Shown: in pieces, positions 1 through 44,325 of the stretch | Numbering within the stretch: the first letter of the stretch is position 1 | How the letters are laid out: the number at the start of each line of letters is the position of its first letter | Assembly: GCA_040754615.1 (NCBI GenBank) | Contig: JBFMBZ010000081.1 | Location: 1-44,326, forward strand | Direction of reading: 5' to 3' | Origin: Candidatus Omnitrophota bacterium | Lineage (GTDB): Bacteria > Omnitrophota > Gorgyraeia > Gygaellales > Profunditerraquicolaceae | Length of the DNA stretch: 44,326 bases | Position numbers and translations under genes: made by a program | The notes under the pieces: model-generated | Databases searched by the model: none | Told to the model about the DNA's origin: nothing | Seen by the model: only the letters and a program-made list of their open reading frames with translations

Positions 1-3000
1 TACTAAAACATATACATTTTTATTGAGCTTCTTAAGCAGGTTTTGACAATTAACTGTAAAATCATCGGTTAACTCCAGTTCGTCAGAAACAAATTTCTGT
101 TCTGGTCTGCAGCCTTGCGTTTTTAATAAATCTATTAATTTATGCATCCAATGCGGCCTGCTTAAAGCTCCCACCGCAAATAGATCTTCATAAAGGCCGA
201 AACGGTACAGGCCATAGTCTCTTTTAGTCATAAGCATTATTTCCCAGGGCCCTGTCTTTCGGTCATAAAAATTGATGTGCAATGCCTCATAGCCTTTATC
301 CCGCCTTTCTTTTAGCTCAACTTCGAAAATTACGCCTTTCTTCTTAAGCCAAAGCTCAATCTCATTTTGAATTTTAGTGCGCAACTTAAGAGCCTTTGTA
401 ACTATCATCACCCCATTAAGGTCATTTATCTCTTCGGGATGCTCATATTTTTCCTTAGTGGTGCTTTCGACCTTATCGTAAATGGCAGCTATGCTCTTCT
501 TTCGATAATTTACTTCCACTTCTTTCTTGCGTTTATGCGTAATTCTTTTCCTTAAGTCTCTGACCAAAGGCAGGGCCAATTCTTCAAGCCGGTCATAATC
601 AACCTGATGGTTTGAATTTATTGCTTCCTTTATCAGGTTATACTCTTCGGGATTGCTTAGTTGAAAGGCGTAATCGCGCATCTGGCTGTAAATCCAGAAT
701 ATAAGGCGGCCGGTTAACGGAGCGTATATATGCGATATCATTTTCGCCCTCACTATTCTGCGTTTCTCTGGCAGGCTAAGAACCCCCTGTATTTTATCCG
801 CTAACTCGAATAATAGCTCAGCGCTGTTTTGCCCTCTTGACTGCGCTATAAAATTCATATAATTCTGCAGCGTATCCTCTGTCCCGAAGATATCCGCCCC
901 CTCTCCCAAATAAGGATAGTTGGTTTTCTGTACCCTTGATATAGCATCATATACGCATTCGGCGTCCTGTTCTGAAAGCACTTCTGAAAGCGCCTCTTTT
1001 AATATGGCTAAATCAACCTTATGCAGTAGCCCAATAGATATCCCCTGTACATTGCCCCCTAATAAAGCAACGATAAACGCCACTGAGGTGGCATGATGCA
1101 AATAACTTTCACCGTCCGGGAAGTTTTTGCCTTTACAGCCTCTTTCAGCTATGGCATAAATTCTTTCAATGCAATTAATCTCCCCTCGCCTTCTGTTGTG
1201 GCAGTTCTTAATAAATGCTTTTACTATTTCCGCGCAAGGAGCGGGCTTTCCTAAAGTATCCGAATCTATCATAGACAATGTCATCGGGGAGCCAACAATG
1301 CTATTTTCTAACATCCTTGTGGCTGCGTCCTTTACGGTTGGATTGGTTGAGCCGGAGATAATCTTTAAATGCGGCCTTGCGGGTTCTTCCTTTCTTATCG
1401 AGCTGGAAGCGCTTTGGCCGACAAATATTAATATCTCTTTTGCCTGCCATTCGGTTAAATCAGACCAGTTTTTAGCTCCGAAGGAAGCAAAGGATAAACC
1501 GCGCCCGTTCAGGCGCTGAGCAATTCCGTTTATATCGCCCGCAATCAAACCAAAGGCCCCTCCTTTCACCATAGCCCGGCTGCTGTAAGCCAGGACCCTG
1601 TTCATATCCACCGGCATAAGGCCTTTTGGGTTCCAGCTCGTCGTAGTATTAGGCAATGTGGTAATGCCCCTGCCGATTCCTCCGGAATGGATTATGCAAG
1701 CCATCTGCTCTAGGGGTCTTTCAGCAATAGAAAAATCATTTCCCTCTGCTGCCACCTTTAAGCCGCCGCTCTCTATTTCCACCTTGCTTATTTCATCGCC
1801 TGCATAAACACAGATGAGTTGCTCCGCAGGAATACCGAATAAAAGATTAACCAGCCTGCGGCCCGTAACTGCTCCGACTGCTTTTGAATCAGGTGAAATA
1901 TCTATAGTGGTATCTCCTCCGGGCTGGGCAGCTATTATCACCGGTTTTATTTTGCCAAAATCAGGGGATAATTTTTTAATTGCCGCGAAACAACGCCTAA
2001 CCTCTGCAACCTGTGCCGCAAGGACGTATACTTTTATATCTTGCGCCTCCGGGCCTTTAAGGATTATAGACCAGGGTTCTTTTGTGTCATTATTTATTAA
2101 GCCAGTTAACTGCTGAAGCACAGCTTCAGGATTACTTAAAATCAGGCCCATCAGCATCGCCTGTAACGCGCGTTTTCTCATCAACGGCCTGGGGTCATAA
2201 TCCCGGTTCTGGTCAAGCCTTCCCGGAGGTATTACAGCTGCTGCTGCAAATCCTGTAACCTTGTTTTCTTTCGCATCAAATTCCGGCTCGCGGCGCTCAA
2301 ACTGATGCCCGTAGACCCCCTTCTCTATGAAAGGCATAGTTATCCGGCCTGCCAGCTCTATTAACAACCCTGTTAATTCATCCATTGAATTCTGAAATAC
2401 TTTTACATAACCCTTCCCTTCCCTATAGACAAAAACAGCGTTCCCGGAAGCAGCGCCGATAATCAGCCTGCGGAATATCTGGTTAGTGTCATCTGAAGTG
2501 CGTGACAAACCAGTCATTATTTCTGCTAAAGTTAATATGCGCTCCACCTGCTGATAAGGCTCAATGGTCTGTTTCCACGGCCCTTCAAAGGCTTGGCCGG
2601 TAATAATCTCTTTAAGCAGCTGGCCCTTTAGAAAAACCCATCCGATATAGGCCATCCAGGGGCTCTTCGGTGTTCCGGCAGCAGTAATTGTGCCGTCCAT
2701 ATCTTTCATGATTAATATGATCTTATTGGCAGAGAACGCCTGATGTAAAAACCGGATAAAAGGAACGGCTAAGGATGCTTCCCCGAGCTTAGAGAGATCC
2801 TTTTGCTTTGAATAATCTCTAATCATGGCTCTGTGATGCGCAATACTCTGCTTTGTTTTTCCTTCCAATATCCTCTTTGCCCTATAAAGCTGGAAGCCCA
2901 ATACTGCTTCAAGATTTATTAATCTTTCCTGCGCGGTAAGGCCTGCGCAAACCACTTCGAAAGGAAGAATAATCTGGATAAACTTGCCGTCATCTTCAAT

Positions 3001-36000: not shown

Positions 36001-39000
36001 TGCTGCGGATGTAACTAACGGCAAACCGATAGCATAAAGGGCTTCATACGATATAACTACCCCTCTTCCTCCCCCTGCTTCATCGCTCTTGGTCTTCCCT
36101 ATAGCGTCAAGCAGGTCTTCTATTTGCTTATCACAGGCACTTACTTTTTCTGCAGACAAGTTGGGGAAGGCTTTGCCCCTGGCCATTCTTAATTGCCAGC
36201 TTAATCCGCGCAATCTTCTAGTCGCTTCGTCTACGGTTATGTCTAAACAGGTAGTTTCTCCGGGTTTTGGTAAATACGCCGAATCCCCTGCCTGAGTTTG
36301 ATTGCCGCGTTCCCATTTATGCAGCGCATCCCAATTCTCTAAGAGGAAATTAAGCGGCAGGGGTTTTTTGTTTTCAGCTGCTTTTATATCCGCATCACTT
36401 AAGTTCTCTATGAGGCGCTGCCTGCGTTTTAAGTCATTAATCAGGAACCCTAAATCGCGAGGGCATCCGGTTTCAGAATCAATATCAACCCTGCCTGCGT
36501 AGGCAAGCATCTGAACGGCAATCTGATATAGCCCGCTGTTATAGGGTTCGTGTAAAATAATATATCCGAGATGGTAATTAATAAAATGCCTATGGAAAAG
36601 GGTGATTTCTGGCAAACTCATGCTGTATGCCTCCTGGCTTTCCAGAGACCAAAAGTCCATTTTCGCTAAATATGCCGCAACAGCAAGATGGCCTAAGCTG
36701 CCTAACTCCCCTAACCCGTGCATATAGGAAATAAACTTTGAAAAACGTGCCTTAATTAAGAATGCGCTAAGATGCTGCTCATTGATTCTTCCTTCAATGC
36801 TATAATCTAAGAAAACAAGCCGGTAAAGCTCCCTGGCAGTATGCGCAGGCGCGACTTTTTCTATCTCCTCTTCAAATGGGGCATAGAGAAAAGGACGCGG
36901 CCCCTGGCCTGCAATGCGGCCCTCTAATTCAAGATGGCGCTGTTCGTGCTTAAATCCTTCCAAAACAATCCTTATTAATTCTTCTTTGTTCTCCGGGCCA
37001 AGTCTCGGGTAGACTTTATTGAGCAGTTCTAAGTATAAGCTGGTCATATAAGCATAGCGCCTGCTGCGGCTGTATCTTAAAACCGTATCGGCTACCGAGC
37101 ATCTTTCCATGTAATTCAAAAGAATTACGTCAAACCAGTTGAAGAATTCTCCTTTATGCGCTTTTAGTGCGCTATAAAATTCTCCCTTCTCTGAAAGGCA
37201 GGGTATTTCTATGTCCGTTTCTGCGCGCGCGGTAAGAGGCTCATCGCTGAATAATGCCCGGGGATTACCCGCTTCTATGGCGTCGGTAAAGAGCATTTCC
37301 ACATACTCATCGCATTCTCTGTGCTCAACATTGGAAAGCGGCCCGCCTAACAAGCGTAGCGCCCCCTCAGGGCCTTTTTCTATGGAGCTTGAGGCGCTAG
37401 AAGGATACCTTCTGTCTTTCTTTGCCTCAACCCGGGAAACATACGCATTTAATTTCGCTATCTTTCCTATCAGGGTATCGCGGGCAGCAACTAAGGTTTT
37501 TGCCGGCTCTACTTTCAGGCCCGCACCGCTACTAATGTGCGCTATTATTGCCCTTCTTTTCAAATCTTTAGCCTCAAGCCTCCCCTTTAATTGAGAAAGC
37601 GTGATTTCCTCGCCATAAGGAGCAATCAGGTCTGTTAATACCCCGGCTTCTGTTTTGTAATTTTCAGGGTTCTCCTTAAGCGGCTCAAAACGGGTAGCCA
37701 TTATTTTAGCCTGCGCATCAGGGTCTTTTTTCTTGATTACCTCTCCTGCCACTACTTCTACAAAACAGGTATCAACAAGCCAGGTCTGGTCTCCGGCTAA
37801 GTTTGTAGACTGGAAAGCAGGATAGCGCTGGTCTACTTCAAAACATTGCATCGCCAGCCTCTTATTGTCCGCGTAATCGTACCTTAGCTGCGCCCTTAAC
37901 GATTCCTCTGTATTAAACCTGTTCATCAATATTTCTACCGCGTCTTCCGAATTAAATTTAGGGAATTGCTGTTGGATAAAGCCTACGAGGTCAAAGACAT
38001 AATTTGCAGTATTAAACAGGGGCTGATACGTATCAACGATTGCATTTAGCAGTTGCGTCAACTCATGGATATCTTTGGTTTCCTTTAATCCTTCTGTTTG
38101 CAATTTTTCAGGGCCGAATAATTTGGCGGCGATGCGTTTAACGGAATCATCCAGCCCTATTAACTCCTTTGACGCTAAAACTAAATCCCGGCCTTCTTTC
38201 TTCGCATCTTCCAACCGGTTTAATGTAGCGCCGAACATCAGCGTTGCGTCTGCCTGAAACCCTTCAATCAACCCTTTAGCGTAGCCGAAGTTTATGCATG
38301 GAGGCACATTGTCTTTTTTGAATTTAGCAGGCGCTCCGCCCTTCTGGCCTGCGGGCTTCTGGGCAATCTCGTTAATTAATGCCTTTCCGGTTAGGCCCAT
38401 GAGCGCAAGCAGGGCCGGCTCTACAGATGCAGCCCGATTATCAACATTAGAAACGAATAGATACCTATAGCCTCTTCTTACTAATTCCACCATCTGTCCG
38501 CTGACAATAGGCTCAACAAAACTTGAGTCATGGCCATCGGGCCAATAAACCTCCTCCTTCTTAAGTTCCGGCTGCATATTAATCAGGAAGTCTGCGGTAT
38601 GCTTATAAAGAAGGTGTGATTTATTATGCTTTATAATCCTTACTTCTGAATAATATTGGTCAGTGTGGGTGTAGAGATTATTATTTGCGATATCCCGTTC
38701 ATAGCCTATCCTCATCAAGTCAGCTCGGATATCCTCGTCTGTCAGATGGCTGGAATGTATTACTACGGGTATATTCTGCAGGAGGTAGCCCTTTGTGCGG
38801 TATTCCCTATTCTTAAAGGAAACCTGGGCAAGGGCGACTTCAAGGATAGAGCGCAATTTACCGTCTATCTCAATAAGGTAGATCCCTTTTGCGCGCTCGT
38901 CTATATATTTCCTGCCCTGTTCATCAAATAAAACCTTAGAATACCTCATTCCCCTGCCGCCGGCAGAAATAGTGACTACTGCCTTTGAGATATATTTCTT

Positions 39001-42000
39001 TAAGCCAAGTTCCTCTAACTCTTCGTAGCTAAATATCTCCCAGCTGCCATTTTTATCCTTGAAAACAGTAAATTTCCCCGGCAAAGGCAGGGCTATGGAA
39101 TCAATATCTACGGGATTATGCTTAATATATTCTTGGGCTTCCTGCCTGGAATTAAACTGTAAGCCCCTTGACCAGGGCTCGAGTTGGTCAAATGAGCCTA
39201 ACCTTATATTCTGGGCGGAAGTAAGGCCCTGCGCGCGGATAACCAAATGCTGCCTGATTAGCTCGCGGATAAAAGAGTAGGCATTATAATAATGCCTGGT
39301 GTCGGGGTCAAAATCCATCCCCCTTAAAGATACAAGCTTATCCAGCGCCGTTAAGAAAACCGAGGAATTAAATTCGGTATTACTGAACACGTATCCGAAA
39401 TGGAGTTGCGCAATGATTTTATTTATGTGTATATTGGTGCGGCTTGATTCAAGGATGGTTTCAGCCTGAAGGATATGCCAATGCAGCCTTTCTTCCCGCG
39501 AAGGTACATTGACATCTTCATAAGCGTTGATATAGGAGATGAAAGAAAACTTGCCATTTTTATTTTTTATCGCTTTAGATAGGAATCTTTTAATATTGGG
39601 TTCTTCACCCGTGATTTTCCAGGCATAAATTACCCTGAATAATTCTCTAACAGCAAACGAAGGGGCTATTTTATCTATTTCAACCTCTATCATAGGAGGA
39701 GAGCGCGACTTTTCATTGGTAATATGGGCATTCTCATGCAGGATCCCCTCCAGAATAATTGATAAGAGCTGCCTTTTTTCTTCTTCATCAAGAGAGGCAT
39801 AAACCTCTGCTAATTTGTCAAAATAAATCCCGACCATGTATGTAACCATGCGCTGCCTGCTGGGGTGCATCACAGTATCCAGCAGCTCATTTATATTTGC
39901 ATCCAATAGAACTACATCCAAATCGCAAATCTTGCTTTGGGATTTAAGGCGCTCTATCTGGAAAACCAGATCTTTATAAAACTGGCTTTGCGCACCAATC
40001 TTCTGTATGGCAGACCATTTAGCAGTCCGGGGGATATCCCTTAACAGGCTCTTTACCCTGTCCTCTTTTATTAATTCTTCAATACGGTGGTTAATAAAAT
40101 CATGCTCATCTCCGCTTAGCCATCCTCCCTGTAGGCGTATAGCGCCGCCTACCGGGCTGGAGGATATGGCTTTTAGCCTTCTTTCTGCTTTGCTGCGGCT
40201 GAAATAAGTTTCCTTGCCAAATACCCTGATTAATCCGTTTTTCATTTCTTTAAGCGGGTGCATAGTCAAAAGGCCAAGCCCGTTAATCCAGGTTCTCTGC
40301 CCGTCTTTTTCAACAATAAATTTAAATTCATGCCCCCTTGCGTCGGGCTCAAGTTGCGCTGCCGGCACAATAACTGCGTATCTGCCGGGAACTATTTCTT
40401 CAGTAACTAAGGCATTGTGCTCCCAATCAGTAAAGTCAGCCGCAAGATATACCTTTGCCTCCTCCTTAGCCCTACAATGGAAAAGCATCCCCTCTTCTAT
40501 CTCAGAATTTGCCCTGAATCTCAAAAGCGCTTTATAAAGCGGGTTAATACTTATACCGGTTAAATCTTCAGGATAAATCTCTTCTCCCAAGGCAGCCAAG
40601 GCTTCTTCAAAGACTCTGTTTTCCAGCTCCCCTAATACGTCTTCGCTTATCCCTAAAATATCCAACGCATCTTTGCGCGAAGAAATTCCAAGCTTACGTA
40701 ATAAATTATACTGGGCTTCACTTACAATAAGCAGCGCATCATTATAATAGATAGGATCCTCCGTATAGTATTGGTGCAATTTTCCGTTTCTGGAGATAAG
40801 GTAACCGTATGACTGCACTCCGGATATTACAAAAACATGCCACTGTATGCGTTCAGTGGGCAATATCACAAAAACATAGTGCCCATAAGGCGGCAATTTT
40901 TCTATGTCCATCCCCGGGAAATTTCCCGCCCTTGCCCATAAATAATCATTCGTTACGCTGGTCACCGGGAAATTTAAGCGCGCATTCTTGCCTTTTCTGG
41001 AATTGAGGGTTTCTTTACTTTTCTCGCAAAACAGGCTTGCTATGCCGGCATAACCGATATTTCTTAAAACCAAACCCACGCCCTCGCATTTGATTTTGCG
41101 CTCTTTATAATCAACATAATCCATCCACCATTCATACACTGCGAAGCCCTGCCTGCTGTCATAGGCAACCAACTTATACATCTGAGCGCCCATAATAGGG
41201 TTATTCACTAATATTTTTTCTTGTAGTTTTTTCTGATCGAGCGCCAAAGTTAAGATTAATTCATTTTCTTCTCCAACTTCCCTGCATAACCAGTGCCATT
41301 CTGAACTCACAAAATGCCCCATCTCCAGCATGATTCTCTCTCCGCTTAGCTGGTTAGTCAGAGTAATTTTCTCCCCCTTCTCCCACTGTCTATCAAAAGA
41401 ACGCTTGCCTATCGGACTGCCGGCCTCTTTAGCATTTATCCCAATCAAAGTAAGCAGGCTTGACTCATGTTCATCCATGGTGCCTGTATGCAAGCTCTGG
41501 ACCAATCTTTCTTTATGATTATAGCAAGATGCAATAATAGTAGAACCGTACAAAGCCCATTCAAATTCTTCTCTGCTAAGGAAGCTGCGATAATAACTTT
41601 CTCCGGTAGAAAGGTCCGTTACCCGGATCATGCCGTCTTCCCTCCTGGTATCTTTGTAAAGCCGGTAATAAAAATCATCTGTAGATTTACTCACGATGAA
41701 TATAAATCCCCATGGCCTTACTACTCTTTGAATCTCTGCTATGATTTTCTTTAATTTCCCGACACTAAAATAATGCACTCCCAGGCGTATATATACAGCG
41801 TCAAAGGAATTATCTTCAAAAGGCAGTCTCTGTGCCATATCAATGGCCTGCGCGCTGATATCAATCCCCTGCTTTTTAGCCTGGTTAAGGACGAATTCTG
41901 CCTTCTCCCTGGTTTTGTCTGAGGCAACCACCTTAAACCCTTCTCTTGCTAAAAACAGCTCATCCGCCCCTTCGCCGCTGGCAAGAGATAATATGTCGTT

Positions 42001-44325
42001 CATCCCCCAGCTTGATTCATTGAACCCTCTGAGATAACCCAAGAAATCTCTCGCCGAAAGGCTTTCTTTGTATTCCAGCGGGCTTCCGGATTGTCCTGTT
42101 TTAATCTTAGGATGGCCGGTAAACGGCCCTTGCATAACCACCGCCATCCTGCAATTAGCGTACGTGAATCCGTGGGCTGTATTCGCATAGATAATAATTT
42201 TTTGCCCGGCAGTTAATTCTCTTTCTTCCCAATGCTGCCAGTTGGCATCAGCAAAAGACGCTTGCGAAACCCCGCCCGTAATTATGAGTATTTCCATATA
42301 ATTATCCGGCTCCTTATGCTTGTCTTCTACGCCATCAGCGGTCTTTACCCCTATACCGATTGCACCGCTGGTGATGGTAATAGGCAGCATTTTAGGCGGA
42401 TATATATTTGTTCCTCTATATATTATTGCTATTAAATTATCGTTATTGTCCGTAATAAGTTCCGGGCAGGGTATTTCTTCGGGGGCTTTCATTGGCCTTT
42501 GCTTGAGGTTGGGGATAATCTTTGAGTTGCCTGGGGGGCCGGTTTCAAAATTTACGCTTCCTTCTCTGATAATTGTTATGAATGAGCTTTCAATGGCATA
42601 TAATTTAGCCGCAGTAAATATGGTAATGATATCATTGCTGCTTAAAGTAACCTCCTTACCTTCCGGAAGCTTAATTTCTATTTTGCCTGAATCCACATAA
42701 ACCACCCTTTGCGACCTGCCTTCAAAAGGAACCTCTTCGCCTTCTGCCAGCGGCCTTGCTTCTAATACTAAAGGTAAATCTCCGTTACTGATGAATTCCT
42801 GTCCCCTGTTAACAACAGTAAACAACTCCGCTGAAACCGGGCTAGCCGCTCCGGAAGCTCCAATTAATTCCTCTTCTAAAGTGGCGCTGTCAATATCCCT
42901 TGCCTCCCGAACAGTCTCAAAGAATTCTTGCGAAAACCGCTTATCTTTTCGGTTAAGGAGCCCAATGATACTTTCTTTAATTATCTTACTATTTTTTATT
43001 TCTAATTGCGCGATTCTGGCATCCATTATCTCAAATGTCTTCTTCAAGGGCTGGTATTCAATGCCCCTCTGATGCTTTAATCTATAGCTATTAGTGCCAT
43101 TTTCAAAGATATCCGCTAATATCAAAATATCCAAACCAAGGATAAGTTCTTCTATAGATACTCCATGAGGCTCGGCGAAACGCCTGAGCTCTTCATAAGT
43201 AGACTCAAAGTAATGGAAGTGATTGGCGATTAACCAGTATTGAATGGGATTTAATATAATTCCCTTGTGCCTTAAAACTTCAAGCGCATAATACTCATGG
43301 CTCACCTCAAGGAAGAGGCCGCCTCTTACCCGTTTTCTCTTTGAGCCCTTAAGCCCTTCTTTATCCAGAATATATTCAATAAGCTGAGAAAAGATATCTT
43401 CATTACCGACAGGATGGTATTGTGTTTCTTTTGACATAAGGAAGGTTTTTACGTGAGCTTTTGTCGGCCCCTTGCCAATGCCGATATAACCCTTTAATAA
43501 ACCCTGATGCTTCTTAAAACTAGCATTGCGCTCATCAATTGAAGCATGACTAATATCTGATAAATCATGGACCAACGCTGCCCGGGTAAGATTTTTCAGC
43601 ATAGTCCAGCTCAAGCCCAACTTTTCTCCTATCGCGCCGGAATATTCATACACCCTATTCATATGCTGGCTATCAATATCCTGACGCTGATGCAAACTCA
43701 CGATATCTTTAACAGTCAACTCTGATAACTCCACCGGGCTACCCGCTGGCCTAGTAGTAGAAAGATGAGAATTAAATGCAATAATTATTGCGGCAGTTGA
43801 CCAGGTCCTGATATTGGATTCCCCAGTACCCATCTTATGAGATACTGCCCTAGTAACAAACCTTCTGCCTAACTGATTACCTAATTGAATATTTGTATCT
43901 CCACCATTAGATAACAAGAGAGCATCTTCTGAACCATACTGCTTCATTTTTTGAGCTACTTCCCAGGGTGTCGTTCCGCCCTCTAAATCTGCACCTTGGG
44001 CATAGATAATAACATCTCCTGTTGCGCTTAAGCCTAATGCAGAATGTGGATAGGACTGCTTAATATGGCGCTTGTCTGAGAATTGGTTTTCCATTCTAAG
44101 AATATTTTCTTTTGACTTTGCTTCTCCTTTTGAAACTATCTGCTGCCCAAAAAATGCCAAATCAACTTCATTGGTTATATCTTTTCCAGTTGCTAGCGCT
44201 ATTAACCTATCTTTATTGCTGTTAATGCCCTTTCTGAATCTTAAGTTTTCAATAGATATACCGCCATGGTTCCATACAACTAAAGAAGTATATATTCTTT
44301 CTTTCCCATTCTCTATTGCTAAACC
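1..44325 (-). CDS. Single giant modular ORF, open at both window edges (14,775 codons in window); multi-enzyme megaprotein fragment
   Basis: Minus-strand phase with codons at + positions 3k-2..3k has no in-phase tta/cta/tca in any line translated. Enzyme motifs stay in this phase from 44.3 kb to position 1. The ORF track has no minus ORF in this phase, as expected for an ORF with no stop in the window. The other phases give only short junk ORFs. Confidence 0.85.
91..570 (-). other. domain segment: RelA/SpoT-like (p)ppGpp synthetase (nucleotidyltransferase) domain
   Basis: Hand translation: YRKKSIAAIYDKV, DLNGVMIV, KGYEALHINFYDRKTGPWEIMLMTKRDYGLYRFG. This is the typical RxKS..S...K / D..G.R / GY.SLH...EIQ..T pattern. 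The ORF continues past position 1. Confidence 0.55.
640..1281 (-). other. domain segment: HD-like domain preceding the synthetase, with degenerate HD dyad
   Basis: ESYLHHATSVAFIVALLGGNVQGISIGLLHKVDLAILKEA. The position of the canonical LLHD reads LLHK. Confidence 0.35.
1282..1296 (-). repeat. inter-module junction motif VGSPM
   Basis: + strand cat cgg gga gcc aac read on the minus strand. Confidence 0.6.
1396..1410 (-). repeat. degenerate junction motif ASSSI
   Basis: + strand tat cga gct gga agc. Same position type as the canonical sites, but Pro is replaced by Ser. Confidence 0.3.
1720..2730 (-). other. domain segment: HAD-superfamily phosphatase-like (type IIB-like)
   Basis: KIILIMKDMDGTITAAGTP (DxDGT at 2689-2703) and a later YAGDEI...EGNDFSIAE (GD..ND-like motif). 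Confidence 0.5.
3780..4750 (-). other. domain segment: CofD/YvcK (UPF0052)-like
   Basis: VVIGSGGGAAVAMTGMVREMIDDHPLVVLGGTDNGGATLI followed by SAASGDIERVNLEA. This resembles the GGGTG...v.DdGGSsG...pGDiRn pattern. The C-terminal limit is uncertain. Confidence 0.35.
4760..6210 (-). other. domain segment: uncharacterised, apparently alpha-helical region
   Basis: Helix-rich, charged translation (for example EAHREAVKLQNMINEVERLRKEGAREATKSDIKK). No motif recognised. Confidence 0.25.
6211..6225 (-). repeat. inter-module junction motif AGSPI
   Basis: + strand aat agg gga gcc ggc. Confidence 0.7.
6226..7527 (-). other. domain segment: hexokinase/glucokinase family (eukaryote-type hexokinase fold)
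   Basis: YLGIDLGGSNLR, GFTFSFPV, INNDTTGTL, WGTGQN, EKMVSGQYLGELVR, VAVDGSLF, THDGSGVGAAIIAAV. Confidence 0.85.
7528..7542 (-). repeat. inter-module junction motif AGSPV (identical 14-mer aaccggcgagccgg at 7528-7541)
   Basis: + strand aac cgg cga gcc ggc. Confidence 0.75.
7543..8454 (-). other. domain segment: inositol monophosphatase / FBPase-like family
   Basis: DTHTEADKIANMRLSDIIRTHFPGHNIISEEE, YTWILDPLSGTLEY (canonical WiiDPiDGT with D to S), KPWDALPRAIMIEQAKG. Confidence 0.7.
8455..8469 (-). repeat. inter-module junction motif SGSPV (identical 14-mer aaccggcgagccgg at 8455-8468)
   Basis: + strand aac cgg cga gcc gga. Confidence 0.75.
8470..9291 (-). other. module of unknown function delimited by junction motifs
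   Basis: Translation VTLTDFTALEGWEPVLWKDE...FIVITTPSFPLGIGVKAPLAGEVGKPHIHTPLDLP...LLSGHNVAFPKDPKMIEIAVGPYPG. No family recognised. Confidence 0.3.
8478..8524 (-). repeat. 47-nt linker-coding repeat, copy 1 (encodes GPYPGSVEKAKIFFEE)
   Basis: caaagaata-t-ttttgctttttcaacagaccccggatacgggccaac. It has one mismatch to 14679-14725 and a 37-nt identical run. Confidence 0.8.
9292..9306 (-). repeat. inter-module junction motif SGSPV
   Basis: + strand aac cgg gct gcc gga (Ser as AGC). Confidence 0.7.
9311..9334 (+). repeat. 24-nt element copy (ggggaaggttctgttttcttcggc)
   Basis: Two mismatches to 9692-9715. Encodes EPKKTEPSP on the minus strand. Confidence 0.65.
9337..9351 (-). repeat. inter-module junction motif SGSPL
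   Basis: + strand taa agg cga gcc gga. Confidence 0.7.
9448..9504 (-). other. predicted transmembrane-like segment
   Basis: GLILVVCISAFSIAVIGII is an uninterrupted hydrophobic stretch of 19 residues. A second, weaker hydrophobic stretch FILITLAYLKLMSSFGAQLLG lies at 9619-9690. Confidence 0.45.
9511..9525 (-). repeat. junction motif variant AASPF
   Basis: + strand aaa cgg cga ggc agc. Confidence 0.5.
9518..9539 (-). repeat. 22-nt identical repeat, copy 1 (encodes KEAIAAS)
   Basis: gaggcagcaatagcttctttaa is identical to 16937-16958. Confidence 0.8.
9692..9715 (+). repeat. 24-nt element copy (ggggacggttctattttcttcggc)
   Basis: Same element at 9311-9334 (+), in inverted orientation at 18358-18381, and partially at 18287-18303. 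Confidence 0.7.
9693..9740. repeat. inverted repeat / RNA hairpin inside the ORF (16-nt arms, 15 of 16 paired, 16-nt loop)
   Basis: gggacggttctatttt (9693-9708) pairs with aaaatagaaacgtccc (9725-9740). It is followed on the sense strand by a U-rich run, cauuuauuuug. Confidence 0.7.
9907..9921 (-). repeat. inter-module junction motif SGSPI
   Basis: + strand gat agg cga ccc aga. Confidence 0.7.
9922..10968 (-). other. uncharacterised domain X, copy 2 (paralog of 13633-14652)
   Basis: YRKYLEEANRLGAL..., FPFILLFALLHELLETRE, FPVNPRFGMSLGMMLRQYNAGGFSDEEAITVLVGLGFEEREDVWYRVKEA. Collinear with copy 1. The antisense ORFs 9719-10315 and 13502-13975 in the track are also alike. Confidence 0.45.
10969..10983 (-). 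repeat. junction motif SGSPA
   Basis: + strand agc ggg cga tcc gga. Confidence 0.55.
10984..11568 (-). other. module of unknown function (charged helix, then a probably beta-rich region)
   Basis: RARAERKKTGTSRPRAKTEQEIEQERKKFYNELGKTRERLFGFWYGRTLFPVEFDTVKWP...VRRIEISYDKQGFCVICNAK...AIFRMKFDSSEDWRLVFTM. Confidence 0.25.
11569..11760 (-). other. domain segment: DnaJ-type J domain
   Basis: [64 protein letters not shown], with an intact HPD tripeptide. Confidence 0.85.
11990..12540 (-). other. domain segment: HEAT-like (PBS-lyase type) repeats
   Basis: FREALGGESSHLKANVIQTLGLLGPKAKDFFPDLREALEKEQDRNIRILILRALVNINLEAAIPILIEALDDLELFREAANIIVATGP. Confidence 0.55.
12541..12555 (-). repeat. inter-module junction motif SGSPV
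   Basis: + strand tac cgg cga acc gga. Confidence 0.7.
12556..13386 (-). other. domain segment: HAD-superfamily hydrolase-like
   Basis: MKVAAFDVAGTILKD (motif I with the second Asp replaced by Ala), IEIYLVSHISSN, QLVFVGDEPSDMIAADKTGIPGV. Confidence 0.55.
13387..13401 (-). repeat. inter-module junction motif AGSPV
   Basis: + strand gac cgg aga acc ggc. Confidence 0.7.
13402..13617 (-). other. short (72-codon) helical module between two junction motifs
   Basis: IKQSLKDLWKEFSLFIDETLEMHLESQKLNLTARAPLIIKFGSFLDYLLVKERIENLRRLMEIEEGSNSGSSE. Confidence 0.3.
13618..13632 (-). repeat. inter-module junction motif SGSPI
   Basis: + strand aat cgg aga gcc gga. Confidence 0.7.
13633..14652 (-). other. 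uncharacterised domain X, copy 1 (paralog of 9922-10968)
   Basis: CRKFLEQANSLGAL..., FPFDCVYALIHELLESRN, FPVNPGLGMGLSLIARKYNPDGLSEGIIVDSLISLGFREREGVWYRLRET. Confidence 0.45.
14653..14667 (-). repeat. degenerate junction motif SSSSL
   Basis: + strand aag aga gga gct gga. It sits directly after the conserved GPYPGSVEKAKVFFEE linker, exactly where copy 1 of that linker has SGSPV. Confidence 0.35.
14668..15630 (-). other. domain segment: class-I SAM-methyltransferase-like (divergent)
   Basis: GDIVADIGCEDDRLGIAIARN, ADKVILNDLL, LLEAKRILKPKGRIIVIEN. Confidence 0.4.
14679..14725 (-). repeat. 47-nt linker-coding repeat, copy 2 (encodes GPYPGSVEKAKVFFEE)
   Basis: One mismatch to 8478-8524. Confidence 0.8.
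15631..15645 (-). repeat. inter-module junction motif SGSPL
   Basis: + strand aag agg cga acc aga. Confidence 0.7.
15646..16929 (-). other. domain segment: PHP (polymerase/histidinol-phosphatase) family metal-dependent phosphoesterase
   Basis: QCDLHSHDFNSDG, LKAFSITNHD, KFSIAHPNE. Confidence 0.6.
16930..16944 (-). repeat. inter-module junction motif AASPV
   Basis: + strand cac agg tga ggc agc. Confidence 0.65.
16937..16958 (-). repeat. 22-nt identical repeat, copy 2 (encodes KEAIAAS)
   Basis: Identical to 9518-9539. The surrounding peptide GQRTNLTFKEAIAASPV parallels GAQRINLTLKEAIAASPF. Confidence 0.8.
16981..16995 (-). repeat. inter-module junction motif SGSPV
   Basis: + strand cac tgg aga gcc gga. 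Confidence 0.7.
16996..18066 (-). other. module of unknown function (helical)
   Basis: MEERDYEDSESALSRRNHYHPFKQRDDYLAAIRRAKERL...NRLTIIFHELLEEELPDQGF...HKEVEHANWLLSVHPYKYRIYSGPEDA. No family recognised. Confidence 0.25.
18067..18081 (-). repeat. inter-module junction motif SGSPM
   Basis: + strand cat cgg aga gcc gga. Confidence 0.7.
18287..18381. repeat. nested inverted repeats / RNA hairpins inside the ORF
   Basis: The outer arms ggggacggtt (18287-18296) and aaccgtcccc (18372-18381) pair over 10 bp. An inner 6-bp stem lies within 18309-18338. ggttctaattt is directly repeated at 18293 and 18338. On the sense strand the structure is followed by auuucuuuugg. Confidence 0.65.
18358..18381 (-). 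repeat. 24-nt element copy in inverted orientation
   Basis: The reverse complement ggggacggttatattttcttcggc has one mismatch to 9692-9715. Here it encodes GDGYIFFG instead of KKIEPSP. Confidence 0.7.
18427..18441 (-). repeat. junction motif variant ASSPF
   Basis: + strand aaa tgg gct gct tgc. Confidence 0.45.
18484..18498 (-). repeat. inter-module junction motif AGSPL
   Basis: + strand aag cgg gga acc ggc. Confidence 0.7.
18499..19700 (-). other. domain segment: pyruvate/2-oxoacid:ferredoxin oxidoreductase alpha-subunit-like
   Basis: [77 protein letters not shown]. Confidence 0.75.
19730..20286 (-). other. domain segment: 2-oxoacid:ferredoxin oxidoreductase gamma-subunit-like
   Basis: [45 protein letters not shown]. 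Confidence 0.75.
20287..20301 (-). repeat. junction motif SASPI between the OFOR beta-like and gamma-like parts
   Basis: + strand tat tgg aga ggc gga. Confidence 0.65.
20302..21250 (-). other. domain segment: 2-oxoacid:ferredoxin oxidoreductase beta-subunit-like (TPP-binding)
   Basis: [57 protein letters not shown]. Confidence 0.75.
21330..21585 (-). other. domain segment: delta-subunit-like 2x[4Fe-4S] ferredoxin domain
   Basis: NPEKCSHCLTCWLFCPDMAI...IDLDHCKGCGICAAQCP (two CxxCxxCxxxCP motifs). Confidence 0.8.
21586..21600 (-). repeat. inter-module junction motif GGSPI
   Basis: + strand tat cgg aga gcc ccc. Confidence 0.65.
21790..22290 (-). other. domain segment: TPR repeats
   Basis: NLGRVYRLLKEFDKALDCYQKIIESNPSDPQAYYYMGVTYLNLKKFSEAVEAFKASLEIFPDNPITNSDLGAAYAELGDFEKAGVVFRRAIQLDPKYARAHANLGMVY. 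Confidence 0.75.
22810..22824 (-). repeat. inter-module junction motif SSSPI
   Basis: + strand aat agg cga gct gga. Confidence 0.6.
22910..23158 (-). CDS. nested out-of-frame 82-codon ORF with its own RBS; hypothetical small protein or frameshifted relic of the module
   Basis: The ORF track gives MFNTYHFQDLEVTRILLRKDGIFAFAHHPSWWYEFDFLIQPNGSVQGKTSNDGWVEVSSQLAKFVKSKVQFLLIKKNLACFG. The composition is balanced and globular-looking. It is preceded by AGGAGG-taatgaa-ATG and by an in-phase TAA at 23174-23176. Confidence 0.4.
   Translation of the reverse strand: MFNTYHFQDLEVTRILLRKDGIFAFAHHPSWWYEFDFLIQPNGSVQGKTSNDGWVEVSSQLAKFVKSKVQFLLIKKNLACFG
23159..23196 (-). promoter_or_regulatory. candidate RBS (AGGAGG, 7-nt spacer) and AT-rich TATAAT-like box upstream of the nested ORF
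   Basis: The minus strand reads ggTTATAATtattaataacaattttaaccAGGAGGtaatgaaATG. No convincing -35 box was found. Confidence 0.3.
23197..23211 (-). repeat. inter-module junction motif SGSPV (identical 14-mer aaccggcgagccgg at 23197-23210)
   Basis: + strand aac cgg cga gcc gga. Confidence 0.75.
23212..24012 (-). other. domain segment: HAD-superfamily hydrolase-like
   Basis: LKVFIWDWDLTIFK (DxDxT), KQYILTANS, NALIIGDGCGEMEAARK. Confidence 0.5.
24013..24027 (-). repeat. inter-module junction motif AGSPV (identical 14-mer aaccggcgagccgg at 24013-24026)
   Basis: + strand aac cgg cga gcc ggc. Confidence 0.75.
24028..24168 (-). other. 47-codon mini-module between two junction motifs
   Basis: SIENNIAGEFGSLREFIGNQFTFRGWWELNLCAAARYISFSPYAEGK. 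Confidence 0.3.
24169..24183 (-). repeat. junction motif SASPA
   Basis: + strand ggc cgg aga agc gga. Confidence 0.55.
24184..24909 (-). other. domain segment: class-I SAM-methyltransferase-like
   Basis: KGRRLLILSVASGRGLLEEVLKEEGHLVKAVEIDNDFVEILK, FDLVLFSECLGAL, LLKRNGLMLITE. Confidence 0.5.
24910..24924 (-). repeat. inter-module junction motif AASPV
   Basis: + strand aac cgg cga agc agc. Confidence 0.65.
24925..25340 (-). other. domain segment: GNAT acetyltransferase-like (tentative)
   Basis: VSWIFVRREYRNRQYEELLYKQLISYLLKNDYASLKLYVQVNEYLEIWRRMPGVK. Confidence 0.3.
25341..27252 (-). other. domain segment: GT-B fold, alpha-glucan phosphorylase (GT35)-like
   Basis: WQISSEIWNPAGGLGRVMQYHG, PPVIHINDAQLAP, LLADTTHTIRNRG, ENTEAAGYTEANIGACAGLQFSPPWNEG. 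The last parallels EASGTS.MK..NG, with Asn where the PLP lysine is expected. Confidence 0.4.
27253..27267 (-). repeat. degenerate junction motif AASAL
   Basis: + strand tag cgc tga agc agc. Confidence 0.3.
27268..28707 (-). other. domain segment: glycogen/starch synthase (GlgA-like, GT5), copy 2
   Basis: AASEMGGVIKEAGLGDVVAGLSAAL, IIHLNEWQTALAPLYL, TIHNIGYRG, GIRNGIDTRKWNP, RIVEQKGLHL, LIPSEYEPCNV, VVRATGGLDGIV. Confidence 0.8.
28708..28722 (-). repeat. degenerate junction motif ASSSI
   Basis: + strand tat tga gct tga agc. Confidence 0.3.
28723..30564 (-). other. domain segment: glycogen-synthase-like GT-B module, copy 1 (divergent, with insertions)
   Basis: FDVLHFNDWQTGLGPAYL, LFTTHNLEYQGVF, GGVYNGIV, RLVKQKGLDLL, LMPSRQEPGGIANLELAALG, SERGGLIDFV. 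Confidence 0.65.
30565..30579 (-). repeat. inter-module junction motif SASPV
   Basis: + strand tac cgg aga tgc cga. Confidence 0.65.
30580..31150 (-). other. uncharacterised domain Y, copy 2 (possibly 2H-phosphoesterase-like), paralog of 33532-34400
   Basis: PRDLLHSTIFAVVYD (HxTx-like), LIRIIFQGVNLGPDGCLFVEGHVYDENIFELKRRLTEAYPDVRRRTPLVNIALGRITDIISPDNFKEL, EVEVTRAALVTLQDRFGL. Confidence 0.2.
31700..32900 (-). other. domain segment: sugar-nucleotidyltransferase (GlgC/fucokinase-like) with beta-helix-like tail
   Basis: VVFKQAGGLGTRFTARLASKVLMPI, HEIIAFQEKPSKDEM, NTIFYHTIIGDDCYIEEGAQIYLSKLASGSRIGKGSAVF. Confidence 0.45.
33517..33531 (-). repeat. inter-module junction motif AGSPI
   Basis: + strand aat cgg gct tcc cgc (Ser as AGC). 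Confidence 0.7.
33532..34400 (-). other. uncharacterised domain Y, copy 1 (paralog of 30580-31150)
   Basis: IKIRLMGIGLTMRGEVFAEARFVDEQAAIGLLSRLRTEYPDERRRVHNPSIILARLVREVTPQEFKAL, EIEVFNAKLVTTQDEFGL. Confidence 0.2.
34740..36010 (-). other. domain segment: UDP-sugar pyrophosphorylase (UDPGP family)-like, copy 2
   Basis: NIISAGGKGTRYAEV, SWPDGHDSAF, YRYNFISNVDNRAA, TRFEPLKEN. Confidence 0.55.
36011..37380 (-). other. helical region preceding UDPGP-like copy 2 (paralog of 39001-40149)
   Basis: GPENKEELIRIVLEGFKHEQRHLELEG...EEEIEKVAPAHTARELYRLVFLDY aligns with LDEEEKRQLLSIILEGILHENAHITNE...EVEIDKIAPSFAVRELFRVIYAW. Confidence 0.35.
37381..37401 (-). repeat. degenerate junction (SSASSSI) between the two tandem supermodules
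   Basis: SSASSSIEKGPEGALRLLGGPLS corresponds to ISSSPVGGAIRLQGGWLS at 40150. Confidence 0.35.
37650..39000 (-). other. domain segment: UDP-sugar pyrophosphorylase (UDPGP family)-like, copy 1
   Basis: VVTISAGGRGMRYSKV, YWPDGHDSSF, YRYLFVSNVDNRAA, TRFEPLKEN. Confidence 0.55.
39001..40149 (-). other. helical region preceding UDPGP-like copy 1
   Basis: Continuous hand translation from 40149 to 39001. No family recognised. Paralogous to 36011-37380. Confidence 0.35.
40150..40164 (-). repeat. inter-module junction motif SSSPV
   Basis: + strand tac cgg gct gga gga (Ser as AGC). Confidence 0.6.
40265..40460 (-). other. domain segment: CBM48 / AMPK-beta-type glycogen-binding-like
   Basis: VYLAADFTDWEHNALVTEEIVPGRYAVIVPAAQLEPDARGHEFKFIVEKDGQRTWING. 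Confidence 0.4.
40465..41409 (-). other. module part of unknown function
   Basis: SFDRQWEKGEKITLTNQLSGERIMLEMGHFVSSEWHWLCREVG...YEWWMDYVDYKERKIKCEGVG... No family recognised. Confidence 0.25.
41410..41424 (-). repeat. inter-module junction motif AGSPI
   Basis: + strand tat cgg act gcc ggc (Ser as AGT). Confidence 0.7.
41425..42075 (-). other. domain segment: class-I SAM-dependent methyltransferase
   Basis: NDILSLASGEGADELFLAREGFKVVASDKT, AQRLPFEDNSFDAVYIRLGVHYF, IQRVVRPWGFIFIV. Confidence 0.65.
42076..42090 (-). repeat. inter-module junction motif SGSPL
   Basis: + strand cag cgg gct tcc gga (Ser as AGC). Confidence 0.7.
42091..42834 (-). other. domain segment: cupin-like (possibly bicupin)
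   Basis: VVYVDSGKIEIKLPEGKEVTLSSNDIITIF and YMEILIITGGVSQASFADANWQHWEERELTAGQKIIIYANTAHGFTY. Confidence 0.35.
42835..42849 (-). repeat. inter-module junction motif AASPV
   Basis: + strand aac cgg gct agc cgc (Ser as AGC). Confidence 0.65.
42850..43731 (-). other. domain segment: HD-superfamily metal-dependent phosphohydrolase
   Basis: SQHMNRVYEYSGAIGEKLGLSWTMLKNLTRAALVHDLSDIS...SHEYYALEVLRHKG...WLIANHFHY. Confidence 0.55.
43732..43746 (-). repeat. inter-module junction motif AGSPV
   Basis: + strand cac cgg gct acc cgc (Ser as AGC). Confidence 0.7.
43747..44325 (-). other. first (partial) module in window; weak resemblance to phosphodiester glycosidase (NAGPA/DUF2233)-type domains
   Basis: VVWNHGGISIENLRFRKG...GDVIIYAQGADLEGGTTPWEVAQ...ALLLSNGGDTNIQLGNQ. 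The resemblance is weak, and the ORF continues upstream of the window. Confidence 0.2.

Follow-up and report, generated by a model that had tools for sequence, protein, structure and literature searches.

The window analysed here, i.e. the whole stretch of 44,326 nucleotides of a Candidatus Omnitrophota bacterium (contig JBFMBZ010000081.1 of assembly GCA_040754615.1), is filled by a single minus-strand open frame of 14,775 codons, which contains no stop and runs off both ends, so that it represents a fragment of an Omnitrophota-type giant “multi-enzyme” gene. About 20 distinct families tile the chain with none dominating, including UDPGP, GT5, GT1, methyltransferases, HAD, PFOR subunits, TPR, HEAT, DnaJ, IMPase, hexokinase and HD/RelA-SpoT. 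The nearest homologues of two modules (46-54% identity) come from Omnitrophota MAGs. Units that are separate proteins in other organisms are joined head to tail with almost no linker, and a five-residue “word”, [SAGV][GAS]SP[VILMFA] (small-small-Ser-Pro-aliphatic), or a Pro-less variant of it, separates them. The features of the window are as follows, where L and P numbers denote other genes or gene fragments compared with it.

1..44325 (-), single open reading frame of 14,775 codons without stop, open at both ends, fragment of a giant multi-enzyme gene
43732..43746 (-), word AGSPV (aa 194), between NAGPA-like and HD modules
42835..42849 (-), word AASPV (aa 493)
42076..42090 (-), word SGSPL (aa 746), 32 aa before the methyltransferase domain
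41410..41424 (-), word AGSPI (aa 968)
40150..40164 (-), word SSSPV (aa 1388), paralogous position to ASSSI at aa 2311
37381..37395 (-), variant word ASSSI (aa 2311), at the boundary between two ~950-aa paralogous units
33517..33531 (-), word AGSPI (aa 3599), paralogous position to aa 4583
30565..30579 (-), word SASPV (aa 4583), N-side of the GT5a-like module; the orthologous boundary carries SSSPV, SSSPI or RTSPI in P0124, P0125 and P0181
28708..28722 (-), variant word ASSSI (aa 5202), C-side of the GT5a-like module and 10 aa before the GlgA-like unit; aligns with SSSPV of P0123
27253..27267 (-), variant word AASAL (aa 5687), at the projected C-terminus of the GlgA-like unit
24910..24924 (-), word AASPV (aa 6468)
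24847..24861 (-), variant word SSSAI (aa 6489)
24169..24183 (-), word SASPA (aa 6715)
24013..24027 (-), word AGSPV (aa 6767), consensus DNA GCCGGCTCGCCGGTT, N-side of the HAD module
23197..23211 (-), word SGSPV (aa 7039), consensus DNA TCCGGCTCGCCGGTT, C-side of the same HAD module
22810..22824 (-), word SSSPI (aa 7168), N-side of the TPR module
21586..21600 (-), word GGSPI (aa 7576), just before the PFOR delta-like ferredoxin unit
20287..20301 (-), word SASPI (aa 8009), between the PFOR beta end (~8006) and gamma start (~8015)
18484..18498 (-), word AGSPL (aa 8610), at the projected end of PFOR alpha (~8611)
18427..18441 (-), word ASSPF (aa 8629), second of a double word, 19 aa after the previous one
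18067..18081 (-), word SGSPM (aa 8749)
16981..16995 (-), word SGSPV (aa 9111)
16930..16944 (-), word AASPV (aa 9128), double word, 17 aa after the previous one
15631..15645 (-), word SGSPL (aa 9561), N-side of a methyltransferase-like module that is bracketed by DGG words in L006
14722..14736 (-), variant word ASSAV (aa 9864), C-side of that module
14674..14727 (-), 54-nt segment (GPYPGSVEKAKVFFEE), 51/54 identical to 8473-8526, a mini-module between ASSAV and SSSSL
14653..14667 (-), variant word SSSSL (aa 9887), start of the internally duplicated module 9887-10241
13618..13632 (-), word SGSPI (aa 10232), end of the duplicated module, paralogous to aa 11469
13387..13401 (-), word AGSPV (aa 10309), 17 aa before the HAD domain
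12541..12555 (-), word SGSPV (aa 10591), 38 aa after the HAD domain
10969..10983 (-), word SGSPA (aa 11115), start of the second copy of the duplicated module
9907..9921 (-), word SGSPI (aa 11469), end of the second copy
9511..9525 (-), word AASPF (aa 11601)
9337..9351 (-), word SGSPL (aa 11659)
9292..9306 (-), word SGSPV (aa 11674), double word, 15 aa after the previous one
8473..8526 (-), second copy of the 54-nt segment, immediately upstream of the word at 8455-8469
8455..8469 (-), word SGSPV (aa 11953), consensus DNA, 14 aa before the inositol-monophosphatase domain
7528..7542 (-), word AGSPV (aa 12262), consensus DNA, between IMPase and hexokinase, in predicted coil (AF2, pLDDT<50) with the helix starting at the Pro
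6211..6225 (-), word AGSPI (aa 12701), 8 aa after the hexokinase end, in predicted coil (AF2, pLDDT<50)
1396..1410 (-), variant word ASSSI (aa 14306)
1282..1296 (-), word VGSPM (aa 14344), 47 aa before the HD/RelA-SpoT-like unit

The preliminary description of this sequence reported 32 canonical sites, and its observation is confirmed: all of them were found at the positions it gave. To figure out whether such a number could arise from composition, we shuffled the sequence 2,000 times, and it turned out that 32 sites were observed against 0.85 +/- 0.9 (maximum 6) in the shuffles. In ordinary Omnitrophota ORFs the pattern occurs about 0.6 times per 10,000 aa, so the enrichment over these is about 37-fold. 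GSP, SGSP and GSPV are among the most enriched k-mers in an unbiased survey, while three control patterns (Thr for Ser, reversed, shifted) are at background. Of the six sites that had been called degenerate, five belong to a real second variant, [SA][GAS]S[SA][VILMF], or more narrowly [SA][GAS]S[SA][VIL], which has 7 sites against 1.08 expected (ASSSI x3 against 0.02 expected), while the “SGST” at 1345 is not supported. A PSSM scan for a continuum of degenerate sites gave a bimodal distribution with few extra hits.

We next compared the words with the domain annotation. None of the 32 sites lies inside a Pfam envelope (P=5e-5), and 8 of 25 domain starts have a site within 40 aa upstream (P=3.5e-4). 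The claim that the sites fall at domain boundaries holds wherever it can be tested, although about 40% of sites are flanked by unannotated sequence and do not contribute to it. The hexokinase unit between two words aligns end to end with complete free-standing hexokinases, and the GlgA and the PFOR beta, gamma and alpha subunit units, which also equal full-length free-standing proteins, end or start within a few residues of words, including the site between the beta-like and gamma-like parts that had been pointed out beforehand, where the beta-to-gamma linker is 8 residues long. Words separate different proteins at 18 of 21 boundaries and never separate domains of one protein (0 of 4; P=0.003). 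The three protein-protein boundaries without a word are delta|beta, gamma|alpha and HEAT|DnaJ.

Conservation in other giant genes had been named in advance as a test, and it turned out that the word is not restricted to this window. Six other Omnitrophota genes carry the same S-P-aliphatic core (RTSP, SSSP, SASP). L001 has 21 sites against 0.95 expected, P0181 has RTSP x9 against 0.034, and P0130 has SSSP x6. The shared GT5-like module is bracketed by S-P words in the window, P0124 and P0181, with one-sided words in P0125 and P0123. Inside the window, four paralogous pairs keep the word at homologous positions. Other giants use different words, namely LDNGG, DGG, KAAAAG and ASSA, which bracket homologous modules, while several giant fragments (L003, L010, L053, L095) show no word. 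A metagenome scan added only two embedded cases, word-indexed protein searches with aa 9880-11480 and with an L001 segment returned nothing, and no synteny was found between giants apart from single shared modules.

At the DNA level, Ser is encoded by AGC/AGT at eight sites (the five at 40.1-43.7 kb, 33517, 18427 and 9292) and by TCN elsewhere, and Pro is CCG at most sites, as had been described, namely at 22 of 32. The use of both Ser codon families, together with 43% third-position divergence and codon sets that differ between lineages, shows selection on the peptide; this evidence comes from codons and third positions, not from a strict orthologue alignment or dN/dS. There is also evidence for DNA copying. 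The 14-mer CCGGCTCGCCGGTT (reverse complement AACCGGCGAGCCGG) occurs 4 times, at 7528, 8455, 23197 and 24013, and is the most repeated 14-mer in the window. Words within one gene share codons, and the 54-nt near-identical copy abuts two words. We asked whether the codon skew (TCG, CCG) was a general Ser-Pro or Ser-Gly codon-pair effect, but non-motif SP uses TCG in 1 of 30 and CCG in 8 of 30 cases, which rules this out, while TCC before GG is partly contextual (38% in non-motif SG). CCGG avoidance or a restriction site is rejected as well, because CCGG is common in the window (259 sites). Internal translation starts after the words are also rejected, since Met and SD-like sequences are not enriched.

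The interpretation offered in the preliminary description is partly supported. Its inferences of selection on the peptide, an added DNA-level component, location at module boundaries and no described equivalent are supported, but it left three roles side by side (protease site, phosphorylation or hinge site, cassette-recombination scar), and our evidence does not settle among them either. Two points need correction: Pro is not obligatory, because S/A variants exist, and the motif is one lineage’s version of a wider phenomenon. That the peptide is under purifying selection and marks protein-equivalents favours a signal that is “read”, such as a cleavage site.

We tentatively regard the word as the recognition site of a dedicated endopeptidase that would cut the giant product, during or after translation, into individual enzymes. 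This is the most likely of the roles considered, although we hold it with less than even confidence. The analysis itself establishes that the word is real and confined to giant genes, that it sits at protein-equivalent boundaries (in short exposed coil, according to the predicted structure around hexokinase), that it is conserved at orthologous and paralogous boundaries and maintained by selection on the peptide, and that junction DNA carries traces of copying; that the reader is a protease, and that cleavage takes place at all, is inferred. Different giant-gene lineages use different words, as expected if each word co-evolves with its own reader. Cleavage might occur after the aliphatic residue, with Pro at P2 as in AAPV/AAPL-type serine-protease substrates, or within small-small|Ser-Pro, as with the tiny-residue sites of papain-like or double-glycine peptidases. 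In this view, junction DNA is copied when modules are inserted or exchanged, which keeps shuffling in frame and may explain why these genes are mosaics.

Some of the content of these genes argues for separation. A CsrA domain starts 4 aa after a word, a TAT-like signal lies inside P0181, a membrane symporter is fused to the end of P0123, and a weak trypsin-like GDSGSP domain lies inside the unrelated fragment P0049 just upstream of its words. However, no peptidase domain was found in the 14,775 aa of the window, including its unannotated modules, by Pfam, NCBIfam and PDB sequence searches, nor in the complete 3,969-aa P0181 or its neighbours, although the window is only a fragment of its gene. 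Besides, there is no proteomic evidence, the strict Ser, never Thr, is unusual for a non-P1 protease subsite, and the motif-specific codon skew is not explained by a protease model.

An uncleaved structural junction is the next best reading, though an unlikely one. Here the word would be a short insulating hinge or helix-start signal (Gly break, Ser N-cap, Pro at N1, polar N3) that lets neighbouring units fold independently within one permanent megaprotein, and it would be lineage-specific because it spreads by copying, with which the shared codons within one gene are consistent; the lack of a detected protease also fits. In the AF2 model both words flanking hexokinase lie in short coil between helices, and the helix starts exactly at the Pro of the first word but 3-4 residues later at the second. 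S/T/D/E follows the aliphatic residue at 69% of sites against 23% background, which fits a capping box (Ser N-cap, Pro N1, acidic N3; S-P-x-[E/T/S/D]). On the other hand, Thr, an equally good N-cap, and Asp never substitute for Ser (the Thr-for-Ser control pattern gives 1 site against 1.5 expected), and units that begin with a beta-strand (CsrA, GlgA) also follow words. DGG and LDNGG have different structural propensities yet sit at the same boundaries in other lineages, a pure linker would not need exact words maintained through saturated synonymous change, and words are absent between domains of one protein, where hinges are also needed.

A post-translational modification site is more doubtful. 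The Ser, which might be phosphorylated, O-glycosylated or otherwise modified to regulate the units or protect the linkers, is strictly invariant while its neighbours tolerate substitution, it lies in predicted exposed coil, and the gene encodes many GT1/GT4/GT5, UDPGP and OGT-like TPR units, the giants being rich in glycosyltransferases and sugar-nucleotide enzymes. With respect to proline-directed phosphorylation, S-P is present at 32 sites, but T-P never occurs and 7 sites have S-S or S-A. This reading does not explain why the sites are confined to boundaries between protein-equivalents or why other lineages use Ser-free words (DGG, LDNGG, KAAAAG) at the same boundaries, and no kinase or known O-glycosylation sequon match was tested positively.

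It is likewise unlikely that the word is only a recombination joint, i.e. the translated footprint of a short DNA repeat used for in-frame insertion, deletion or exchange of modules, without function as a peptide. An identical 14-mer flanks both sides of the HAD and IMPase modules in the window and an identical 15-mer flanks hexokinase in L001, neighbouring junctions are more alike at DNA level (P=3e-4), all-consensus 15-mers are over-represented (P=3e-4), P0181 words are CGC-ACC-TCG-CCN in 8 of 9 sites, and module order is mosaic. However, S-P is kept through both Ser codon families and the third-position divergence, LDNGG and SSSP words vary freely at synonymous sites, there is no adjacency effect in L001, L002 or L006, and a neutral scar would have decayed at protein level. 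The repeat is only 12-15 nt, with no extended inverted repeat and no recombinase near P0181 or co-encoded in the rest of the sequence available, and the window holds no other gene. Co-translational separation of the 2A/StopGo or arrest type, for which the Pro preceded by small residues and the lack of a stop codon might speak, is very unlikely, since there is no conserved upstream nascent-chain element (positions -15 to -1 carry no information), Pro is replaceable by Ser/Ala and other lineages’ words lack Pro.

Several systems invite comparison. Giant “multi-enzyme metabolic cluster” proteins of Candidatus Omnitrophota (bioRxiv 10.64898/2026.06.07.730766; giant genes in bioRxiv 10.1101/2023.11.21.568195) share the stop-free ORF above 10,000 aa that tiles many unrelated enzyme Pfams (starch synthase GT5, GT1, methyltransferases, HAD, hexokinase, TPR/HEAT), and processing of these giants has been proposed. 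However, those papers describe domain content only, neither mentions a junction motif, and West-Roberts et al. state that cleavage points are unknown; we found no published description of the word. Viral polyprotein cleavage sites (e.g. picornavirus 3C Q|G, coronavirus Mpro LQ|S/A/G, alphavirus nsP2 A-G-A|A) are also short, lineage-specific words in exposed linkers at every boundary between mature units of one ORF, while this is a cellular bacterial gene for central-metabolism enzymes, with no cognate protease identified and cleavage only inferred. In multi-core RiPP precursors (e.g. cyanobactin PatE) and double-glycine leaders cut by C39 peptidases, repeated recognition sequences flank each cassette. 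The DGG and LDNGG words of other Omnitrophota giants end in Gly-Gly like C39 sites, and C39 domains are reported to be common in Omnitrophota giants. Here, in contrast, the cassettes are whole enzymes of 250-600 aa, position 1 is S/A in 30 of 32 sites and position 2 is G in 22 of 32, with no Gly-Gly except at one site, no conserved leader helix was found upstream, and no C39 domain is present in the window. Serine-protease substrates with Pro at P2 (AAPV/AAPL/AAPF; the nisin leader GASPR|I cut by NisP) share a small-small-(small)-Pro-aliphatic arrangement, but this is only a resemblance of sequence, and no S1 or S8 protease was found here apart from the weak domain in P0049. Integron attC and cassette arrays are also mobile units flanked by repeated short sequences, with mosaic order and signs of DNA copying at the joints, but the joints here are 12-15 nt, always in frame and translated, and conserved as a peptide through synonymous change. 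Only a 12-nt near-palindrome at 4 sites was seen, with neither a long imperfect inverted repeat nor an integrase.

In conclusion, the word is the first concrete candidate for the sites where such giant proteins might be cut into separate enzymes. Giant genes of Omnitrophota, up to about 150,000 aa, are a recognised puzzle, and the literature asks explicitly whether their products act as one chain or are cut up. A statistically solid motif that is conserved between genes and marks the boundaries of protein-equivalents makes that question testable, gives a principled way to split giant proteins for structure prediction and annotation, and suggests that such genes are built by in-frame shuffling of modules at repeated joints. 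It remains possible, though less likely than not, that some bacteria express dozens of central-metabolism enzymes as a cellular polyprotein, in effect an operon without stop codons, with the enzymes released by cleavage at a lineage-specific five-residue word and the same words serving as in-frame joints for module shuffling. If cleavage is confirmed, it would be a polyprotein strategy for cellular metabolism in bacteria, which so far is known essentially from viruses and peptide precursors.

The 44,326 bases form one open frame on the minus strand (14,775 codons, no stop of any kind), which runs off both ends. To figure out its content, we ran Pfam and PDB-sequence searches, and it turned out that the chain is a string of unrelated enzymes, namely a phosphodiester glycosidase-like unit, HD, several methyltransferases, two UDP-sugar pyrophosphorylase-like units, three starch-synthase (GT5) units with GT1, two HAD phosphatases, TPR, and the four subunit types of a 2-oxoacid:ferredoxin oxidoreductase in the order delta-beta-gamma-alpha, followed by HEAT, DnaJ, inositol monophosphatase (IMPase), a eukaryote-type hexokinase and an HD/RelA-SpoT unit. 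About 73% of the chain has no Pfam match. The closest relatives of two modules (46-54% identity) are from Candidatus Omnitrophota MAGs, and the architecture matches the “multi-enzyme metabolic cluster” class of Omnitrophota giant proteins (bioRxiv 10.64898/2026.06.07.730766). Old internal duplications of whole modules (25-50% identity) were found at aa 1353-3278, 3331-4610, 4696-5641, 8601-8727/11460-11593 and 9887-10241/11120-11478, so the gene grew partly by module duplication. The GC skew of the plus strand is negative in every 2-kb bin (-0.05 to -0.21), so the coding strand is consistently G-rich over C, and the junction words described below are local GC peaks (67% against 44%).

Features in the open frame (minus strand) that are discussed below, with nucleotide positions:
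about 21814-22245 (aa 7361-7504), TPR unit
18499-21600 (aa 7576-8609), complete 2-oxoacid:ferredoxin oxidoreductase
18427-18498, paired words at aa 8610 and 8629
16930-16995, paired words at aa 9111 and 9128
14653-14736, paired words at aa 9864 and 9887
14674-14727, one copy of a 54-nt segment
9292-9351, paired words at aa 11659 and 11674
8473-8526, the other copy of the 54-nt segment
6226-7542 (aa 12262-12700), eukaryote-type hexokinase

The observation made in the preliminary description, that a pentapeptide recurs at module junctions, is correct. The motif [SAGV][GAS]SP[VILMFA] matches 32 times, and each of the 32 claimed sites was confirmed at its position, while shuffled sequences give 0.85 +/- 0.9 with a maximum of 6. 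GSP, SGSP and GSPV are among the most enriched 3- and 4-mers in an unbiased survey; k-mer enrichments were not corrected for multiple testing, although the expected counts are 10 to 1,000 times below the observed ones. Ordinary ORFs from 28 Omnitrophota loci carry the motif at 0.58 per 10,000 aa, against 21.7 here. The information content is confined to five residues plus a weaker sixth position, which is S/T/D/E in 69% of sites, and nothing upstream is conserved. Of the six “degenerate” sites that had been proposed, five belong to a second variant, [SA][GAS]S[SA][VILMF], which has 7 sites against 1.08 expected and in which ASSSI occurs three times. Controls with Thr for Ser, or with reversed or shifted order, are at background, so Ser is obligatory, Pro can be Ser or Ala, and Thr never replaces Ser. 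The words sometimes come in pairs 15-23 aa apart (aa 8610/8629, 9111/9128, 11659/11674 and 9864/9887), enclosing “mini-modules” of 10-18 residues, and the mini-peptide before AASP at aa 9128 resembles the one before aa 11601 (QRxNLTxKEAI).

We then summarized the location relationship between the words and the protein units. None of the 32 sites lies in a Pfam envelope (P=5e-5), and 8 of 25 domain starts have a site within 40 aa upstream (P=3.5e-4). The unit between the words at aa 12262 and 12701 aligns from residue 4-25 to the last residues of nine complete free-standing hexokinases, while E. coli glycogen synthase (477 aa) aligns to aa 5215-5680, bracketed by ASSSI (5202) and AASAL (5687). 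Against the separately encoded subunits of a four-subunit PFOR (PDB 9bt4), beta projects to end at about 8006 and gamma to start at about 8015, with the word at 8009-8013; alpha projects to end at about 8611, with a word at 8610, and delta starts about 9 residues after the word at 7576. In this oxidoreductase, which has an unusual subunit order, delta-beta and gamma-alpha are fused without a word, and a word lies only between beta and gamma.

Boundaries were also defined independently of the words. Of 21 boundaries between domains that belong to different proteins in free-living organisms, 18 carry a word, the exceptions being delta/beta, gamma/alpha and HEAT/DnaJ, while none of 4 boundaries within one protein does (GT5/GT1, POR_N/PFOR_II, HK1/HK2 and HD/RelA-SpoT; Fisher P=0.003). 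The two classes differ in gap length, and restricting the comparison to gaps of 90 aa or less gives 5/7 against 0/4 (P of about 0.045, calculated by hand). An AlphaFold2 model of the hexokinase with 40 extra residues on each side (mean pLDDT 84.6) puts both words in short coil with pLDDT below 50, between the last helix of one unit and the first helix of the next, and at the first word the predicted helix starts at the Pro.

To examine conservation in other genes, we searched GTDB genomes with a hexokinase profile and recovered 79 loci, in nine of which the hexokinase is embedded in an ORF that is open at both ends. The hexokinase (PF00349/PF03727; window and loci L001-L159) scores best against vertebrate tandem hexokinases but is 46-47% identical to Omnitrophota enzymes, and there are 407 relatives in GTDB genomes across Omnitrophota, Aminicenantes, Planctomycetota, Kiritimatiellia, Desulfobacterota and other MAGs. 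The closest locus, L001 (Omnitrophota MAG, 40% GC), has 21 x-[GAS]-S-P-[VILA] sites in 7,107 aa against 0.95 expected, with SASPL on both sides of its hexokinase. An exhaustive HMMER search with the GT5 region found Omnitrophota fragments which share, at 33-54% identity, the module lying between SASPV (4583) and ASSSI (5202). Among these fragments, P0124 has SSSPV on both sides of the module, P0181 has RTSPI before and RTSPA after it, P0125 has SSSPI before it, and P0123 has SSSPV after it. P0181 (L160, 3137-15046) is a complete 3,969-aa gene with nine RTSP words against 0.034 expected; it contains two tandem CsrA domains, a transaldolase and a GT5/GT1 unit, and its neighbours are toxin-antitoxin and ABC-transporter genes. 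P0130 has seven [ST]SSSP[LVMI] words. When 84 sites from seven genes were pooled, only positions -2 to +2 around the Ser carried information. Inside the window, four old paralogous pairs (25-45% identity) keep a word at homologous positions (1388/2311, 3599/4583, 10232/11469 and 9887/11115). None of the genes compared is a true orthologue of the window, but absence of the motif from homologous genes, which had been named beforehand as grounds for rejecting it, is therefore not what we found.

Other giant fragments bracket the same hexokinase module with different words. For example, L002 uses [PS][LI]DNGG (LDNGG five times against 0.003 expected), L006 uses x-x-DGG (19 against 2.1), L109 uses KAAAAG, L033 and P0049 use ASSA[TA], and L020 may use D[GS]TPYQ. 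A longer word, TFPVEA[DQ]AVPG (once as SSPVEADAVPG), is used in the giant ORF P0122. In L006 and L002 these words also bracket PGI, OMP decarboxylase, histidine phosphatase and amidohydrolase units, and in L033 a word precedes the phosphofructokinase unit. A methyltransferase-like module shared by L006 and the window is bracketed by DGG...DGG in the former and by SGSPL...ASSAV in the latter. This generalization rests on about a dozen gene fragments, and some fragments show no word (L003, L010, L053 and L095). Apart from single modules there is no synteny between giants, so they are mosaics.

The interpretation given in the preliminary description, which saw selection on the peptide together with a DNA-level component and named several candidate roles, is partly supported. 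In favour of selection on the peptide, Ser is encoded by both AGY (8 sites) and TCN (24 sites), third positions of the four constrained codons are 43% diverged, the S-P core is kept across lineages with different codon sets (TCG in P0181, AGC in P0123, mixed in P0130), and LDNGG words vary freely at synonymous sites. In favour of a DNA-level layer, TCC (14/17), TCG (12/32 against 7% background) and CCG (22/32 against 30%) are over-used at the words, which is not a codon-pair effect, since non-motif Ser-Pro uses TCG in 1 of 30 cases. All-consensus 15-mers are over-represented (P=3e-4), neighbouring junctions are more alike than random pairs (P=3e-4), and the four identical 14-mers flank both sides of the HAD (aa 6767-7038) and IMPase (aa 11953-12261) units. 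L001 has the identical 15-mer on both sides of its hexokinase, and P0181 uses CGC-ACC-TCG-CCN in 8 of 9 words. Besides, the 54-nt segment, which encodes GPYPGSVEKAK[VI]FFEE and is 51/54 identical between its two copies, lies immediately upstream of a word in two otherwise unrelated places and looks like a recent DNA-level copy. Our reading is that junction DNA is copied when modules are inserted or exchanged, and that the peptide is then maintained by selection.

A short, exposed word that is specific to a lineage, sits exactly between protein-equivalents and is kept by selection on the peptide is what a recognition site for a processing protease looks like. West-Roberts et al. already proposed processing for Omnitrophota giants from the presence of C39 and S8 domains, while noting that cleavage points are unknown. 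Some module content fits separation better than permanent fusion: in P0181 a CsrA domain starts 4 residues after a word and there is a weak internal TAT-like signal (aa 745-765); in P0123 (L163, aa 2515-2557) a sodium:alanine symporter, an integral membrane protein, begins at the C-terminal end of the multi-enzyme ORF, shortly after an SASSPT word; and in the multi-enzyme fragment P0049 (aa 1-130) a weak trypsin-like domain (PF13365, E=0.085, nearly full profile) with a GDSGSP catalytic-serine signature lies directly upstream of the first ASSATV-type word. By sequence resemblance alone, the word is like serine-protease substrates with Pro at P2 and an aliphatic P1, or alternatively like the tiny-residue sites of papain-like or double-glycine peptidases. 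Against the protease model, no peptidase was detected in the window, in P0181 or beside it. What the analysis shows is the word itself, its place between protein-equivalents, its recurrence in related genes and its maintenance at the peptide level, while the protease and any cleavage at the words are inferred.

We hold the polyprotein reading only tentatively, although it ranks first. An uncleaved hinge or helix-start signal is the strongest rival, but is unlikely. A Ser modification site is doubtful, although the TPR unit, which is most similar to the TPR domains of O-GlcNAc transferases and SPINDLY and to consensus designed TPRs, may be relevant to it, and a pure recombination joint is slightly more doubtful still. 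Ribosomal StopGo-type separation is very improbable, and internal re-initiation is not supported.

While the gene class is known, we found no description of the junction words in the two papers on these genes, and no paper in the library searched pairs Omnitrophota with “polyprotein”. Conceptually, what would be new is a polyprotein-type punctuation in a cellular, metabolic, bacterial setting.
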